From assembly GCF_002854065.1 (NCBI RefSeq), contig NZ_CP024147.1: 64,000 bases of DNA; one strand, written 5' to 3'. This DNA comes from Escherichia coli (GTDB lineage Bacteria > Pseudomonadota > Gammaproteobacteria > Enterobacterales > Enterobacteriaceae). Of the stretch, positions 475 to 42,949 are shown in pieces (positions within the stretch are counted from its first letter, which is position 1; each line of letters begins with the position of its first letter). The translations under genes and the position numbers were made by a program. The notes under the pieces were generated by a model. The model worked only from the letters and a program-made list of their open reading frames with translations. It was not told the origin of the DNA and searched no databases.

Positions 475-737
475 CCTGCTCAAACCAACGTTAATAGCCA
501 TCCTAAAATAGACGAAGCGCCAGCCAATTCCCGCAGCGCGTCTAGCGTCATCAGGATTATAAGTACCCAAATAAACGGATTCATTTTGCTGTGTGTCATT
601 TATTACTGATGCGCAGTTATTCTACCGCTTTGTAAGTAGTAAAATAGTTAACCCGATCAAGACTACTATTATTGGTAGCTAAATTTCCCTTAAGTCACAA
701 TACGTTATTATCAATGCTGTAATTTATTCAGCGTTTG

Positions 738-751
738 TACATATCGTTACA
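738..751 (+). promoter_or_regulatory. RstA-box-like motif TACATATCGTTACA about 100 bp upstream of asr
   Basis: Matches the TACAtntnGTTACA motif as I recall it for RstA; asr is a reported RstAB/PhoBR target. Functional binding is inferred, not shown. Confidence 0.4.
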
Positions 752-854: not shown

Positions 855-1163
855 ATGAAAAAAGTATTAGCTCTGGTTGTTGCCGCTGCTATGGGTCTGT
901 CTTCTGCCGCCTTTGCTGCAGAGACTGCGACCACACCTGCTCCGACTGCGACGACCACCAAAGCAGCGCCGGCGAAAACTACACATCATAAAAAACAGCA
1001 TAAAGCAGCACCTGCCCAGAAAGCGCAGGCGGCTAAAAAGCATCATAAAAATACGAAAGCTGAACAGAAAGCCCCTGAACAAAAAGCGCAGGCAGCGAAG
1101 AAACACGCCGGGAAACACAGCCATCAGCAACCGGCAAAACCTGCTGCACAACCCGCAGCGTAA
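855..1163 (+). CDS. asr: Acid shock protein (periplasmic, low-complexity Ala/Lys/His/Gln-rich)
   Basis: ORF-track frame 828..1163; start moved to the ATG at 855 (MKKVLALVV signal peptide, GAGGG ribosome-binding site upstream), giving 102 aa. Characteristic repeated [16 protein letters not shown] segments. Confidence 0.9.
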
Positions 1164-1255
1164 GTTTTCAACAGTAATGCTGGCGCGCCCCCTCGCGCCT
1201 GAAAATTACGGTGCTAAGCGGGTAACGTTTAGCACCGTCTTTAGCGGAGGGTAGT

Positions 1256-1339
1256 ATGGTGGGCCGTTATCGCTTTGAGTTCATTCTTATCATCCTTATT
1301 TTATGCGCACTGATTGCCGCTCGTTTTTATCTTTCCTGA
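1256..1339 (+). CDS. ydgU: Small hydrophobic protein, 27 aa (MVGRYRFEFILIILILCALIAARFYLS)
   Basis: Hand-translated ATG..TGA; below ORF-track size cutoff; position between asr and ydgD matches the known small-protein gene. Confidence 0.6.
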   Translation: MVGRYRFEFILIILILCALIAARFYLS

Positions 1340-1438: not shown

Positions 1439-2260
1439 ATGCGTACAACCATTGCTGTAGTGTTGGGTGCAATTAGTTTGACGTCTGCTTTTGTGTTTGC
1501 AGATAAACCAGACGTTGCCAAATCGGCAAACGATGAGGTCAGCACCCTGTTTTTTGGTCATGATGATCGTGTGCCAGTGAATGACACGACCCAATCACCG
1601 TGGGATGCGGTTGGGCAACTGGAAACGGCCAGCGGCAATTTATGTACGGCGACGCTGATTGCACCCAATCTGGCATTAACGGCAGGACACTGTTTATTGA
1701 CACCTCCAAAGGGTAAAGCCGATAAAGCAGTGGCGCTGCGTTTTGTGTCAAATAAAGGTCTTTGGCGCTATGACATCCACGACATAGAAGGCCGCGTTGA
1801 TCCGACACTGGGAAAGCGGTTAAAAGCAGATGGGGATGGTTGGATTGTACCTCCCGCAGCCGCGCCGTGGGACTTCGGATTGATTGTGCTACGTAATCCC
1901 CCTTCTGGCATTACGCCGTTGCCGTTATTTGAGGGAGATAAAGCCGCGCTTACCGCCGCATTAAAAGCGGCAGGTCGTAAAGTGACTCAGGCAGGATACC
2001 CTGAAGATCATCTCGATACGTTGTACAGTCATCAAAACTGTGAAGTGACTGGCTGGGCGCAAACGTCGGTGATGTCACATCAGTGCGATACCTTGCCGGG
2101 TGACAGCGGTTCGCCTCTGATGTTGCATACCGATGACGGCTGGCAATTAATTGGGGTGCAAAGTTCGGCTCCTGCCGCGAAAGATCGCTGGCGCGCCGAT
2201 AACCGGGCCATTTCTGTTACCGGTTTTCGCGACAAGCTGGATCAACTGTCGCAAAAATAA
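1439..2260 (+). CDS. ydgD: Secreted trypsin-like serine protease
   Basis: 273 aa; N-terminal signal peptide; catalytic motifs LTAGHC (His) and GDSGSP (Ser) visible in the translation. Confidence 0.9.
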
Positions 2261-2980: not shown

Positions 2981-3391
2981 TGTCCTTCTCCTGCAAGAGA
3001 ATTATTTTAATTTTCGCTTAATTCAGCGAAACCAAAGTAAAGTGGTCAAGCCCCGCGCTTAGCGCAAGCTTTGGCAGAAGAAAGGACTAAAGCGCGTTGC
3101 GCCAGTGCTGCTCACCTACGAGCAAGATAGTGGATGAGGTACGAAGATGGGTAAATGTAGAAAATAACGTCCTGAACAAATTGTCCATAATATTACAATT
3201 ATCCGCAGTGTTGCTTCTCGTCATCGCGGATGATAATTGTCCTCGGTAGTTGAACACGCCTGATTTGTATCATAGCTTAAGAATTAACTCAAAATATTTT
3301 CACTTCTTTACCTGAGCGGTTTGATTTTCGTTATGATGACGGAGCGAAAAAGACATTATTATTAGCAAAGGAAGAAAAAACGGGGACAAGC

Positions 3392-5849: not shown

Positions 5850-7445
<1,596 letters not shown>

Positions 7446-7905
7446 TCATGTACGAGCTAAATGTTACTCCGTTAAAATAAATTAGTAACAAACGCCCTAT
7501 AACGTACTGAAAATTATGCCTGTGATCTAGCGCCAAAAATCAGTATTTCGGCGTGAACTCGCAAAATATTAACGATTCAGCCGTGATAGTGGGATAAACA
7601 CCTTAGAACGCCGGATAAAGACTGATAATTGTCTTCGACGGTCGGGTAAAACGAGACAACGCCCCGGCACGAATCACTACTTAACATTAAATTAACTTAT
7701 ACAATTCAGTTGCTTCAGTAGTATTGATGCTGATACGGCTGTTTTTTAAGCATAGACGGTCATTTGAGCAGGATTAAAATTGGTTTAAGGAATGTGATAT
7801 GAAAAATGACGCAGACAGTTACACCGTTTAAATGCAATAATCAGCCACGTTTCTCGTTAATAACAATACCAGTACCTGGTTTGCGCAAGGCGAAGGATTA
7901 TTTTT

Positions 7906-11637: not shown

Positions 11638-12357
11638 ATGAACACTATCGTATTTGTGGAAGATGATGCGGAAGTCGGTTCACTGATTGCCGCGTACCTG
11701 GCAAAACATGATATGCAGGTTACCGTAGAGCCGCGCGGCGACCAGGCCGAAGAAACCATTTTGCGAGAAAATCCGGATTTGGTGTTACTCGACATCATGC
11801 TACCAGGCAAGGACGGCATGACCATTTGTCGTGATTTACGCGCAAAGTGGTCCGGACCGATTGTTCTTCTAACCTCTCTCGATAGCGATATGAACCACAT
11901 CCTGGCACTGGAAATGGGTGCCTGCGACTATATTCTCAAAACGACGCCCCCTGCTGTTTTGTTAGCGCGTTTACGTTTGCATTTGCGTCAGAATGAGCAA
12001 GCCACACTGACCAAAGGTCTTCAGGAAACGTCTCTGACTCCCTACAAAGCCCTGCATTTCGGCACGTTGACCATCGATCCCATCAACCGCGTAGTCACCC
12101 TGGCTAACACTGAAATCTCGCTCTCGACAGCTGATTTCGAATTATTGTGGGAATTAGCTACCCATGCCGGGCAAATCATGGACCGCGATGCATTGCTGAA
12201 AAATTTACGCGGCGTCAGTTATGACGGACTGGATCGTAGCGTGGACGTGGCTATTTCGCGGTTAAGAAAAAAACTGCTCGATAACGCCGCAGAACCTTAT
12301 CGCATTAAAACTGTGCGTAACAAAGGCTATCTTTTTGCGCCTCATGCATGGGAATAA
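11638..12357 (+). CDS. rstA: Two-component response regulator (OmpR family)
   Basis: ORF-track frame 11578..12357; start moved to the ATG at 11638 (MNTIVFVEDD), giving 239 aa with receiver and winged-helix domains. Confidence 0.9.
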   Translation: MNTIVFVEDDAEVGSLIAAYLAKHDMQVTVEPRGDQAEETILRENPDLVLLDIMLPGKDGMTICRDLRAKWSGPIVLLTSLDSDMNHILALEMGACDYILKTTPPAVLLARLRLHLRQNEQATLTKGLQETSLTPYKALHFGTLTIDPINRVVTLANTEISLSTADFELLWELATHAGQIMDRDALLKNLRGVSYDGLDRSVDVAISRLRKKLLDNAAEPYRIKTVRNKGYLFAPHAWE

Positions 12358-20883: not shown

Positions 20884-22149
20884 TTACTTCAGCATAAAGT
20901 CATACTGAATACTCATTTTCACATCCCAGTAATTCAGGCGATCGCCCAGCACACTGCCATCGCGCTTTTCCCCCCCTTTATCGGCAGCAAGAAAGAAATT
21001 CATCCCTTGTAACGGCCCTTCGCTGACCCGATAGTTCATACCACCTAAGATACCCGCGCCTTCAATCCGCACATCTCGTTTACTGGATTCATAGCCGCGA
21101 GTCACAATCGGTGCAAATGTCAGTGTAAATTGCGGCGTTAAACGATAGTTGACGCCCAATTGCCAGGACTGCATTCCTTCACGGTTACGATAAAGACTTA
21201 ATGAAAAGGGATAGCCAATGTCGGTATCCACCACGGCACCATTCATTGCATGGCGCAAATAACCACCACTGCCAAATACGCTTCCCCACGGCGCATTCCA
21301 GGTCAATTGTCCACTAACCAACGCCGTTTCATTGGGCTGACTGGTATTACGACTTAAACCTTCGAGCTGCGCGTAAAAGCCGAGCAACTCCCCTTTCAAC
21401 GTATAATTCGGGTCGAGCGGTATGCTTTTCTCGAGAATACTTTGTATCTGATTGGAAACATCTTTCTGTACCGATGCCCCCAGAGAATAGCGACTGGTAT
21501 CATCATGCCAACTGGCGGCTAAAAAAGAACGTGCGCGATGTTTATCGTATTTTCCCGTCTGGCTGTTATAAACCCCTTCATCACGAATACCGGTTGTTGA
21601 ATCGGTCCATAAAAATACTCGTGAACGCCACATTCCCCACAGATCAATATTTGGCGTTAACGCCCAATAACCTAATGCTCCTTCAGAAACTGTCGGTAAT
21701 GTACGTTGCGAACTGCCAGCCATTAACGGAATACGATAAGGTAAGCTACCATAACTATAATCCGTCCCGAAGCGACCTAATTTAAGCTGGCTATTTTCAC
21801 TGGGTTTTATTTTTACTGCCCCCAGGGCAAAGCCAAAACTTTTATCACCATCAAGATACCACCGGGTACTCATATCAGCACGAGCACCTAATTTATAAAC
21901 ATAATACGCTCCGCCTTCAACGCCAATAATATTGGAATAATAACCACTATTGAAATCGAGCAATCCTCCCTGTACCCATGCGTAAATATCTCTTCCCGCG
22001 CCAGCACTGGGCTTATCCGCCCTGCGCAATTCGTTTTTCAGTCTGATGCGTAGTCCCGCTTCATCGTCAGCCAGTTGCGCCGCGTAAGCAGAGGTAAGGC
22101 CAGAGGCAGCCGTCAGGCAAATAACGGCCATGGCCACTATTTTTCTCAT
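20884..22149 (-). CDS. uidC: Outer-membrane beta-barrel protein of the glucuronide utilisation operon
   Basis: 421 aa with signal peptide and terminal aromatic residue pattern typical of porins; now separated from uidB/uidA by IS1. Confidence 0.9.
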   Translation of the reverse strand: MRKIVAMAVICLTAASGLTSAYAAQLADDEAGLRIRLKNELRRADKPSAGAGRDIYAWVQGGLLDFNSGYYSNIIGVEGGAYYVYKLGARADMSTRWYLDGDKSFGFALGAVKIKPSENSQLKLGRFGTDYSYGSLPYRIPLMAGSSQRTLPTVSEGALGYWALTPNIDLWGMWRSRVFLWTDSTTGIRDEGVYNSQTGKYDKHRARSFLAASWHDDTSRYSLGASVQKDVSNQIQSILEKSIPLDPNYTLKGELLGFYAQLEGLSRNTSQPNETALVSGQLTWNAPWGSVFGSGGYLRHAMNGAVVDTDIGYPFSLSLYRNREGMQSWQLGVNYRLTPQFTLTFAPIVTRGYESSKRDVRIEGAGILGGMNYRVSEGPLQGMNFFLAADKGGEKRDGSVLGDRLNYWDVKMSIQYDFMLK

Positions 22150-22187
22150 AGTTGCACCTTTGATGTTCTGATTATTTTTATTGAATA

Positions 22188-22323
22188 TTAATTAGTGATA
22201 TCGCTGATTAATTGCTGCTGCACTTTTTTACGATTATCAATTTCAACCACGATTTCTTTGAATTTTTTATCCGTGAGCGGATAAAACCAGATAATGACGA
22301 ATGCCAGTAACATAAATCCGCAA
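22188..22323 (-). pseudogene. uidB: 3' fragment of uidB (last 42 codons plus stop), detached by the IS1 insertion
   Basis: Hand translation of the minus strand across the target duplication continues the uidB frame ([42 protein letters not shown], then stop at 22188..22190); 415 + 42 = 457 codons. Confidence 0.8.
22315..22323. repeat. IS1 target-site duplication, copy 1 (AATCCGCAA)
   Basis: 9-bp sequence immediately flanking the IS1 end, identical to 23092..23100. Confidence 0.9.
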
Positions 22324-22338
22324 GGTAATGACTCCAAC

Positions 22339-22842
22339 TTATTGATAGTGTTTTATGTTCAGATAATGCCCGATGACTTTGTCATGCAGCTCCACCGATT
22401 TTGAGAACGACAGCGACTTCCGTCCCAGCCGTGCCAGGTGCTGCCTCAGATTCAGGTTATGCCGCTCAATTCGCTGCGTATATCGCTTGCTGATTACGTG
22501 CAGCTTTCCCTTCAGGCGGGATTCATACAGCGGCCAGCCATCCGTCATCCATATCACCACGTCAAAGGGTGACAGCAGGCTCATAAGACGCCCCAGCGTC
22601 GCCATAGTGCGTTCACCGAATACGTGCGCAACAACCGTCTTCCGGAGCCTGTCATACGCGTAAAACAGCCAGCGCTGGCGCGATTTAGCCCCGACGTATC
22701 CCCACTGTTCGTCCATTTCCGCGCAGACGATGACGTCACTGCCCGGCTGTATGCGCGAGGTTACCGACTGCGGCCTGAGTTTTTTAAATGGCGGAAAATC
22801 GTGTTGAGGCCAACGCCCATAATGCGGGCGGTTGCCCGGCAT
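22339..22842 (-). CDS. insB: IS1 transposase InsB (expressed as InsAB' fusion by -1 frameshift)
   Basis: 167-aa ORF with the canonical IS1 InsB sequence as I recognise it. Confidence 0.9.
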
Positions 22843-34393: not shown

Positions 34394-34634
34394 GTCATTG
34401 CCTCTCATTGAAGTATGATGGCTATTTGACACTATCCTTTACCCTCGCTCAACAGTTTAATAACCTGCCAGCAATAAGGGATGTTGTTTAACTTAAGTCA
34501 AAAAAATAGCGATTTTTCCAACGACAAAAGCTAAATATCGCAAAAACCTCAGTAAAAATCTTGCTGGAGCTATTATTGCTAAGTAACATTTACCCCCTGA
34601 AGTTAATGGATCAATCAACAGAGATGTGAGTTGT

Positions 34635-34760
34635 AATGAATCGTCTTATTGAATTAACAGGTTGGATCGTTCTTGTCGTTTCAGTCATTCTTCTTGGCGT
34701 GGCGAGTCACATTGACAACTATCAGCCACCTGAACAGAGTACTACGGTACAACACAAGTA
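34635..34760 (+). CDS. blr: Small membrane protein, 41 aa (beta-lactam resistance / divisome-associated)
   Basis: Hand-translated MNRLIELTGWIVLVVSVILLGVASHIDNYQPPEQSTTVQHK; below ORF-track cutoff; position between ydgJ and cnu matches blr. Confidence 0.6.
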
Positions 34761-35033
34761 AGCTCTGCGCTTGTAGAGCGACATGCTGCCCGTCCGGGTG
34801 CATGTTTTCACTTGTCGGATATTAAACCAGGAATTTATTATCTTGTTCGGTGTTGTTGGTGATTGTCAGGGATAGTAAAGCGCGTTACTCTTTTCATAGC
34901 AGTTTTTCATCCCTGAATATTTGCCATCAGCGCATTCTTATTATTGTAATAACACAAGCGTTCACTTTTGGTGAAATTTTATCATCACTAATAATACCTA
35001 CCCCTTTGGTATTAATTATTTTATGGACCTTTT

Positions 35034-42339: not shown

Positions 42340-42345
42340 AGAAAA

Positions 42346-42365
42346 GGGGTAACACCGATTACCCC
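42346..42365 (+). terminator. Hairpin (GGGGTAA / TTACCCC) immediately after nth stop; candidate operon terminator
   Basis: 7-bp perfect stem, 6-nt loop, followed by T-rich ATTGATAACCTTTCTTTATCC. Confidence 0.4.
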
Positions 42366-42949
42366 ATTGATAACCTTTCTTTATCCTCTTTTAAAACATC
42401 TTTTTAACGTCAATGATGCCATTGCTTAGCGTTATCATCAGGTAATCCGTTTGCGAATAACCAAAAATGCAGGTTAATTGTTTTTTTAATAGCGAAATTT
42501 TCTATTCATTCGTGATCAAGATCACGATGCTGTGGCAATGTAAAAACATTGCAAGAATCAGGTTAAAATCATTTAAATTTACATACGCAACAAATATTGA
42601 CCTACAAAACATTACACTGGCTATTTTTCAGAAACTGGACTATCTCACTAGGAAAAACGCTAAATAGCAGAACATATCGCCGTCAAGCCATCATCCCCCT
42701 CTCAATGCAGTGAAAAAATCTGCCGTTACGTTTTTTGAAAAATTTAACGCTGGATAACATTTCCCGGAATGGTTGAATTCCCCGCCTCAGTTATATGTAA
42801 CAGATTATTACAAAGGACTTGTCTGAAAGTGCAAGATAGTGAACATTACCTGCCGTTTCCCCTCCCACTATAACAATTGCGCGTATGTTTTTTAGACATA
42901 ACGCGAGAAAGCACCCCCGTTAATATGGGATGTAAAAAAAGAGGTAAAA

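Follow-up and report, generated by a model that had tools for sequence, protein, structure and literature searches.

Short membrane-protein genes samT (ydgU) and blr in a 64-kb window of the Escherichia coli chromosome, and a candidate attenuator between asr and samT

Two short frames in E. coli DNA, one of 27 and one of 41 amino acids, raise the question of whether they are genes for small membrane proteins or belong to the many frames that open by chance in non-coding spacers. Both lie in the window (the whole 64-kb stretch of DNA that was analysed), which is a piece of the E. coli chromosome running from ynfM to mepH. A first-pass annotation, made from the sequence alone, had placed an ATG-to-stop frame for ydgU at 1256..1339 and one for blr at 34635..34760. 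The coordinates of ydgU are exact; those of blr are one base too low, while the 41-aa frame itself is right and lies at 34636..34761. The features on which the analysis of both genes is based are listed below.

855..1163, + strand: asr, acid-shock periplasmic protein, gene 1 of the operon (K-12 b1597; RefSeq CDS at the same coordinates)
1246..1251, + strand: Shine–Dalgarno sequence GGAGGG of ydgU/samT, 4 nt before the ATG
1256..1339, + strand: ydgU = samT, ATG-to-stop frame of 27 aa, MVGRYRFEFILIILILCALIAARFYLS; single-pass inner-membrane peptide, RstB modulator
1439..2260, + strand: ydgD, trypsin-like serine peptidase, the conserved neighbour 3' of ydgU
11638..12357, + strand: rstA, intact, response regulator activating asr–samT (role: PMC13425233)
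12361..13662, + strand: rstB, intact, sensor kinase to which SamT is reported to bind (PMC13425233)
34624..34629, + strand: in-frame ATG followed by TGA, four codons before the blr start, a start–stop pair in this strain
34636..34761, + strand: blr, 41 aa, MNRLIELTGWIVLVVSVILLGVASHIDNYQPPEQSTTVQHK; single-pass membrane peptide, division septum/beta-lactam resistance protein

Gene calls and family matches in the window

The RefSeq CDSs match both frames exactly, with ydgU corresponding to K-12 b4601 and blr to K-12 b4409, so that both do stand in intergenic positions annotated in E. coli, as had been claimed. The ydgU product (WP_000233090.1) is labelled in RefSeq either ‘hypothetical protein’ or ‘small membrane protein YdgU’, and the blr product (WP_001296096.1) ‘division septum protein Blr’. 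Concerning the family models, YdgU scores 70.3 bits against NF052476 (small_YdgU; curated cut-off 24), with residues 1–27 aligned to positions 1–27 of the profile, and 74.5 bits against NF011341 (PRK14758; cut-off 66). Blr scores 91.3 bits against NF033231 (small_Blr; curated cut-off 40) and 87.9 bits, over its full length, against the Pfam family PF24673 (Blr_divisome; cut-off 27). Each peptide contains one strongly hydrophobic segment, and the best 15-residue Kyte-Doolittle window reaches 3.06 in YdgU and 2.71 in Blr, which bears out the description of both as single hydrophobic helices.

Both loci are widespread in the species. Of 5426 complete E. coli genomes, 5418 contain the 1.5-kb segment surrounding ydgU and 5388 the 1-kb segment surrounding blr, and the exact YdgU protein and the exact Blr protein are each present on at least 1000 contigs. 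In K-12 the ydgU locus has the same order (asr, ydgU, ydgD), the peptide has 27 aa of which 26 are identical to those of the window, and the Shine–Dalgarno sequence is the same; the single difference is Thr22 in K-12 against Ala22 in the window. K-12 Blr likewise lies in the order ydgJ, blr, cnu, has 41 aa and shares the transmembrane segment and the SHIDNYQPP motif, and its tail differs by two substitutions (SASV in K-12, STTV in the window). All the functional evidence comes from K-12, and the window carries the T22A form of YdgU and a Blr that differs in two residues.

As to the strain, the window matches E. coli CUWW06 without a difference as far as position 2982 and stays collinear with it from there on. 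In the uidC/uidB area (~21500..22500) it is about 667 nt longer than CUWW06, which has an IS1 and a truncated uidC there.

The length of such frames says little, as 16 ORFs of at least 20 aa overlap each of the 800-nt neighbourhoods of ydgU and blr. Because short frames are this common by chance, the case for the two genes rests on conservation, purifying selection, family models and published expression. Based on these, both frames are almost certainly real E. coli genes for small inner-membrane proteins that have been described before. Both genes are already known, being recorded in RefSeq, K-12/EcoCyc and NCBIfam, and in Pfam for blr, and their functions are published. The first-pass annotation had also stated that any size-filtered annotation would miss the two genes; this holds for a naive filter on ORF length, but not for RefSeq/PGAP, where dedicated HMMs call both.

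Conservation, selection and start codons of ydgU and blr

The ydgU loci were collected through the neighbouring protein YdgD alone, with one genome per species, which avoids ascertainment bias; this gave 21 loci. A YdgU frame of 26–27 codons precedes ydgD by 100–233 nt, in the same orientation, in 20 of the 21, and these come from Escherichia, Citrobacter, Enterobacter, Phytobacter, Pseudescherichia, Erwinia, Izhakiella and Dickeya. The start codon is ATG in 19 of the 20 and GTG in the remaining one, which belongs to a low-quality assembly. The gene asr lies directly 5' of ydgU in 18 of the 20 loci; in the two from Dickeya the sequence 5' of the gene is too short to show what lies there. The gap between ydgU and ydgD is nearly constant (100–116 nt in 18/20 species; 155–233 nt in Dickeya), and GGAGG is present before the start, at the same spacing as in the window, in most of the 20 species. 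Across these species the peptide follows the consensus M-(V/L)-x-R-Y-x-F-E, then a hydrophobic stretch with a conserved Cys and an (R/S)-F-(Y/F)-(L/F) end. The YdgU of the window fits this pattern, with the basic N-terminus R-Y-x-F-E and one hydrophobic helix containing the conserved Cys.

Homologues of Blr (100) were found in at least eight genera, namely Escherichia, Shigella, Citrobacter, Salmonella, Enterobacter, Lelliottia, Leclercia and Intestinirhabdus. Conservation of the frames across Enterobacteriaceae, one of the checks proposed with the first-pass annotation, is thus documented for ydgU as well as for blr. In an alignment of 23 Blr sequences, R3, E6 and L7 are invariant and so is S-H-I-D-N-Y-Q-x-P just after the helix; eight of the nine residues of the motif S-H-I-D-N-Y-Q-P-P never change and its first P is at least 90% conserved. 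The Blr of the window has the same layout of a single transmembrane helix followed by SHIDNYQPP. In the window and in K-12, blr stands between ydgJ, on the opposite strand, and cnu (ydgT), and the order add, ydgJ (− strand), blr, cnu, ydgK, rsxA is kept in Salmonella, Enterobacter, Lelliottia and C. koseri. The 90% protein cluster (JGI) that holds the 41-aa Blr also lists a 542-aa ‘chaperonin GroEL’, presumably an artefact of database clustering.

Published work on Blr concerns cell division and the cell wall. PMC10470546 names Blr as a component of the divisome (citing Karimova 2012) and as a substrate of RseP, and PMC12350097 cites Wong 2000 on Blr and beta-lactam susceptibility. Blr, a bitopic protein, is reported to be found at the cell-division machinery, to stabilise it, and to alter susceptibility to inhibitors of peptidoglycan synthesis. 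The contacts of Blr with the divisome, like that of SamT with RstB, rest largely on bacterial two-hybrid assays, and the DrpB paper cautions that membrane-tethered two-hybrid fusions, among which it names Blr, give implausibly many partners.

The two frames could in principle be chance ORFs in non-coding spacers (the asr 3'UTR/ydgD 5'UTR and the ydgJ–cnu spacer) that encode no functional protein, a reading for which the abundance of ORFs of at least 20 aa in both neighbourhoods speaks, as does the literature examined, which reports no required phenotype for either peptide. The pattern of substitution is against it. The ydgU frame is free of stops in 20/20 species, whereas every one of the remaining five is broken in 14 to 20 of the 20. 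Variation is in excess at third codon positions, the variable sites at positions one, two and three numbering 18, 13 and 25 of 26 in ydgU and 13, 7 and 35 of 40 in blr. The pN/pS is 0.17 for blr and 0.35 for ydgU, the latter pooled over 20 loci in which synonymous sites are near saturation. The conserved Shine–Dalgarno sequence, the matches to curated HMMs, and the published ribosome footprints, tagging and genetics also count against chance, which retains practically no probability; this reading of ydgU and blr is already refuted. A different possibility is that ydgU is mainly a translated leader (upstream ORF) which controls ydgD and does not act through its peptide. It would agree with the shared strand and the short, steady distance to ydgD and with the fact that a terminator-like site between ydgU and ydgD was not found; the constancy of this adjacency is partly built in because the loci were chosen via ydgD. 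However, the amino-acid sequence of YdgU is conserved beyond what the frame alone would require, the peptide is membrane-localised (PMC11429745), and samT supplied alone in trans restores the negative feedback on Pasr (PMC13425233). A role mainly as a leader is therefore very improbable, and we read ydgU as the gene of a membrane peptide.

Concerning blr, the doubt is about its start. Two in-frame ATGs lie 5' of the gene, at 34606 and 34624 (within 34606..34635, + strand), and the one at −4 codons is present in every species compared. In K-12 the upstream sequence is ATG-TGG, with no TGA, so that a frame of 45 or 51 aa is open; in Salmonella, C. koseri and Lelliottia, too, no stop interrupts the frame as far as the ATGs at −4 and −10 codons, and the longer forms are also open in Citrobacter. 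A longer form is what many records of Salmonella, Citrobacter and Lelliottia give, and Enterobacter and Lelliottia have ATT or ATC at the position of the E. coli ATG, which means that an upstream or non-canonical start is needed there (PGAP gives the Enterobacter Blr an ATT start). These points speak for a true Blr of 45 or 51 aa. In the window, however, the ATG at −4 is directly followed by TGA, so only the 41-aa Blr is possible in this strain. Of 5321 E. coli genomes, 396 carry the exact 54-nt allele with ATG-TGA (O157:H7 and O145 are among them), and the residues upstream of Asn2 are poorly conserved. We thus consider a longer Blr unlikely.

Further short genes and conserved blocks in the spacers

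The list of short genes in the first-pass annotation was correct for ydgU and blr but incomplete, as two more genes of fewer than 50 aa are found in the window.

480..599, − strand: small hydrophobic ORF of the KPN_01571 family, 39 codons as called, between ynfM and asr
3087..3188, − strand: mdtU (formerly ydgV), 33 aa, upstream ORF of mdtJI (K-12 b4777)

MdtU is described as a translated upstream ORF of mdtJI (PMC10746267) and has no NCBIfam match. Its C-terminal GEQHWR-AL is invariant from Escherichia to Tenebrionibacter and the middle of the peptide varies freely; a fixed C-terminus with a variable middle is a pattern that suits a regulatory nascent peptide. The KPN_01571-family ORF scores 63.3 bits against NF033695 (cut-off 35) and is conserved in Escherichia, Citrobacter, Enterobacter and Phytobacter. 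Over 11 distinct sequences its pN/pS is 0.25, a sign of purifying selection. The conserved start is probably Met6, which would give a peptide of 34 aa (MNPFIWVLIILMTLDALRELAGASSILGWLLTLV); no obvious Shine–Dalgarno sequence was seen for this ORF. A PGAP CDS is present for it here, and in K-12 (NC_000913.3) the ORF is intact yet unannotated. A search of the literature for KPN_01571 found no paper.

Two other intergenic regions, 7437..7905 and 42340..42949, had been suggested as places where similar short ORFs could hide. This did not hold up, since no ORF of at least 20 codons in either region is conserved, matched by NCBIfam or annotated in K-12. The ORFs of at least 20 aa in 7383..7905 and 42340..42949 were rejected as hidden genes because they have neither an NCBIfam match nor a K-12 annotation and are not kept in Salmonella, Enterobacter, C. 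koseri or Citrobacter. Eight candidate ORFs of 34–66 aa, taken from or beside the two regions, gave no NCBIfam match in a search in which the KPN_01571 control was matched. In 42340..42949, 20 ORFs have at least 10 codons, and of those with 20 codons or more none has been kept in Salmonella, Enterobacter and C. koseri. In 7383..7905 no ORF of at least 20 codons is preserved in Citrobacter; this pntA–ydgH spacer was compared mainly with one Citrobacter sequence, and Salmonella covered its last 216 nt only. Two shorter frames, a 12-codon ORF at 42808..42846 (− strand) and a 10-codon ORF at 7799..7831, are open in other genera. They were judged not to be genes because they lie inside highly conserved non-coding blocks and display no synonymous bias.

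Such blocks, strongly conserved and non-coding, are present in both regions. About 90 nt before the ydgH start (~7815..7905, + strand) are almost 100% identical in E. coli, Citrobacter and Salmonella. This is far more than in the rest of the spacer and exceeds what is typical of coding sequence, and the block includes the hairpin ACCAG-TAC-CTGGT. A regulatory role as part of the 5'UTR is probable for this block. The nth–dtpA spacer (42340..42949) has kept a length of 601–611 nt and several non-coding blocks across four genera, among them ATATGTAACAGATTATTACAAA and GATAGTGAACATTACCTGCCGTTTCCCCTCCCACTATAACAAT. It also contains a short hairpin, (G/T)ATG...CAT(C/A), in which the inner bases differ between genera and the pairing is kept. 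These blocks likely serve as the promoter and 5'UTR control of dtpA. Rfam at gathering thresholds gave no match anywhere in the 64-kb window.

As a discovery, the presence of ydgU and blr carries little weight; as a check on annotation quality it is useful. An ORF cut-off of 50 or 60 aa conceals at least four conserved genes here (samT, blr, mdtU and the KPN_01571-family ORF). One of them, samT, was shown in 2026 to regulate a virulence-relevant two-component system that is encoded in the same window, and many RefSeq records still call its ORF a ‘hypothetical protein’.

The asr–samT operon: promoter, spacer and the function of SamT

The RstA-box consensus, as reportedly given by Ogasawara et al. 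2007, is TACATNTNGTTACA. A match to it upstream of asr and two hairpins in the spacer between asr and ydgU are the elements from which the control of the operon can be considered.

738..751, + strand: RstA-box match TACATNTNGTTACA with zero mismatches, ~100 nt upstream of asr; the sole zero-mismatch match in the 64-kb window
1182..1199, + strand: GC hairpin GGCGCG-CCCCCT-CGCGCC in the asr–ydgU spacer; its C-rich part pairs with the ydgU Shine–Dalgarno sequence in the MFE fold
1208..1238, + strand: terminator-like hairpin with a 13-bp stem and a 5-nt loop, −21.7 kcal/mol, then CTTTAG; 17 nt lie between the hairpin and the ydgU ATG

The match at 738..751 is probably the RstA operator of the asr–samT operon. 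The gene ydgU was described as part of the asr transcription unit in work on acid stress, where ribosome profiling at pH 4.4 placed it third among the induced genes (Ribo-seq log2FC 9.22; PMC10746267). Under Mg starvation, which was also profiled, its induction is PhoQP-dependent and is driven by the sequence 5' of asr; the sequence directly 5' of ydgU does not drive it (PMC11429745). A GFP–YdgU fusion is localised in the membrane, and neither deletion nor overexpression of ydgU affects growth under low Mg (PMC11429745). Ribosome profiling and tagging, which the first-pass annotation had proposed as checks, are thus both available from published work. The gene was renamed samT in a paper of July 2026, according to which the induction of asr and samT at pH 5 is RstA-dependent, as is the Northern signal (PMC13425233). 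In that paper samT alone, placed in trans at another locus, restores repression of Pasr. This effect is gone in the rstA mutants D52A and D52E and in rstB mutants. In two-hybrid assays the T18-SamT fusion gives a strong signal with T25-RstB and weaker ones with PhoQ and EnvZ (PMC13425233). The effect of asr is opposite (positive) to that of samT (PMC13425233).

According to these published reports, the asr promoter, activated by RstA, gives an asr–samT operon transcript with samT as its second gene. Acid and low-Mg stress lead to strong translation of SamT, whose single helix inserts in the inner membrane. There SamT is reported to bind RstB, encoded ~11 kb from samT in the window, and to limit phosphotransfer from RstB to RstA at acid pH, which amounts to a negative feedback on this acid-sensing system.

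The spacer between the two genes has features that may bear on their relative expression. It is 92 nt long, and its MFE fold has −41.5 kcal/mol (z = −3.15). A hairpin equivalent to 1208..1238, with a T-rich tail and −15 to −23 kcal/mol, ends 14–21 nt before the samT ATG in 20/20 species. An ungapped stem search finds it in 19 of the 20, and the bulged stem of Phytobacter is seen only in the MFE fold. The stems fall into at least four unrelated sequences among the 20 species, and the Shine–Dalgarno sequence comes directly after the hairpin. A scan with a terminator consensus did not call the E. coli hairpin at 1208..1238 a terminator because its T-run is short, with three T only.

In the same MFE fold, the C-rich stretch 1186..1194 pairs with 1243..1252, which covers the samT Shine–Dalgarno sequence. 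The C-rich hairpin is found in Escherichia and in some Citrobacter and is missing in many other genera. A conserved translational switch based on this pairing was rejected as a general feature because of this absence. In Escherichia the C-rich stretch may nevertheless add a layer of control on samT.

Our tentative interpretation, which we rate as somewhat less than an even chance, is that the asr–samT spacer is a conserved attenuator, a leaky intrinsic terminator whose read-through would set, and might also tune, the ratio of Asr to SamT. To judge from the sequence, with a terminator-like hairpin between asr and the ribosome-binding site of samT only read-through transcripts would encode SamT. 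SamT would then be held at a fraction of Asr. If true, the attenuator would give rise to the ‘differential expression of asr and samT’ which the SamT authors raised as a possibility (PMC13425233), and a hairpin beside the samT ribosome-binding site suggests a simple way to fix the ratio of two opposing regulators. The main text of the SamT paper, outside its references, does not mention a terminator, read-through or hairpin element in this spacer (PMC13425233), and its preprint mentions neither a terminator nor mono- or bicistronic transcripts. Our literature search for an asr terminator gave no relevant report, and no transcript 3'-end data were found. The conserved terminator-like hairpin adjoining the samT Shine–Dalgarno sequence is the one modestly new point.

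A known system that works in a similar way is that of MgrB, the inhibitor of PhoQ. Like SamT, MgrB is a small inner-membrane peptide with a single helix, and its gene is activated by a two-component system (PMC13425233). Each of the two peptides binds the sensor kinase of its own system, PhoQ in the case of MgrB and RstB in that of SamT, and gives rise to a negative feedback (PMC13425233). The SamT authors report no strong sequence homology between them (PMC13425233), so the likeness is one of functional class and not of sequence family. There is also a difference in gene arrangement: samT comes second in its operon, behind asr, whose effect is the opposite of its own.
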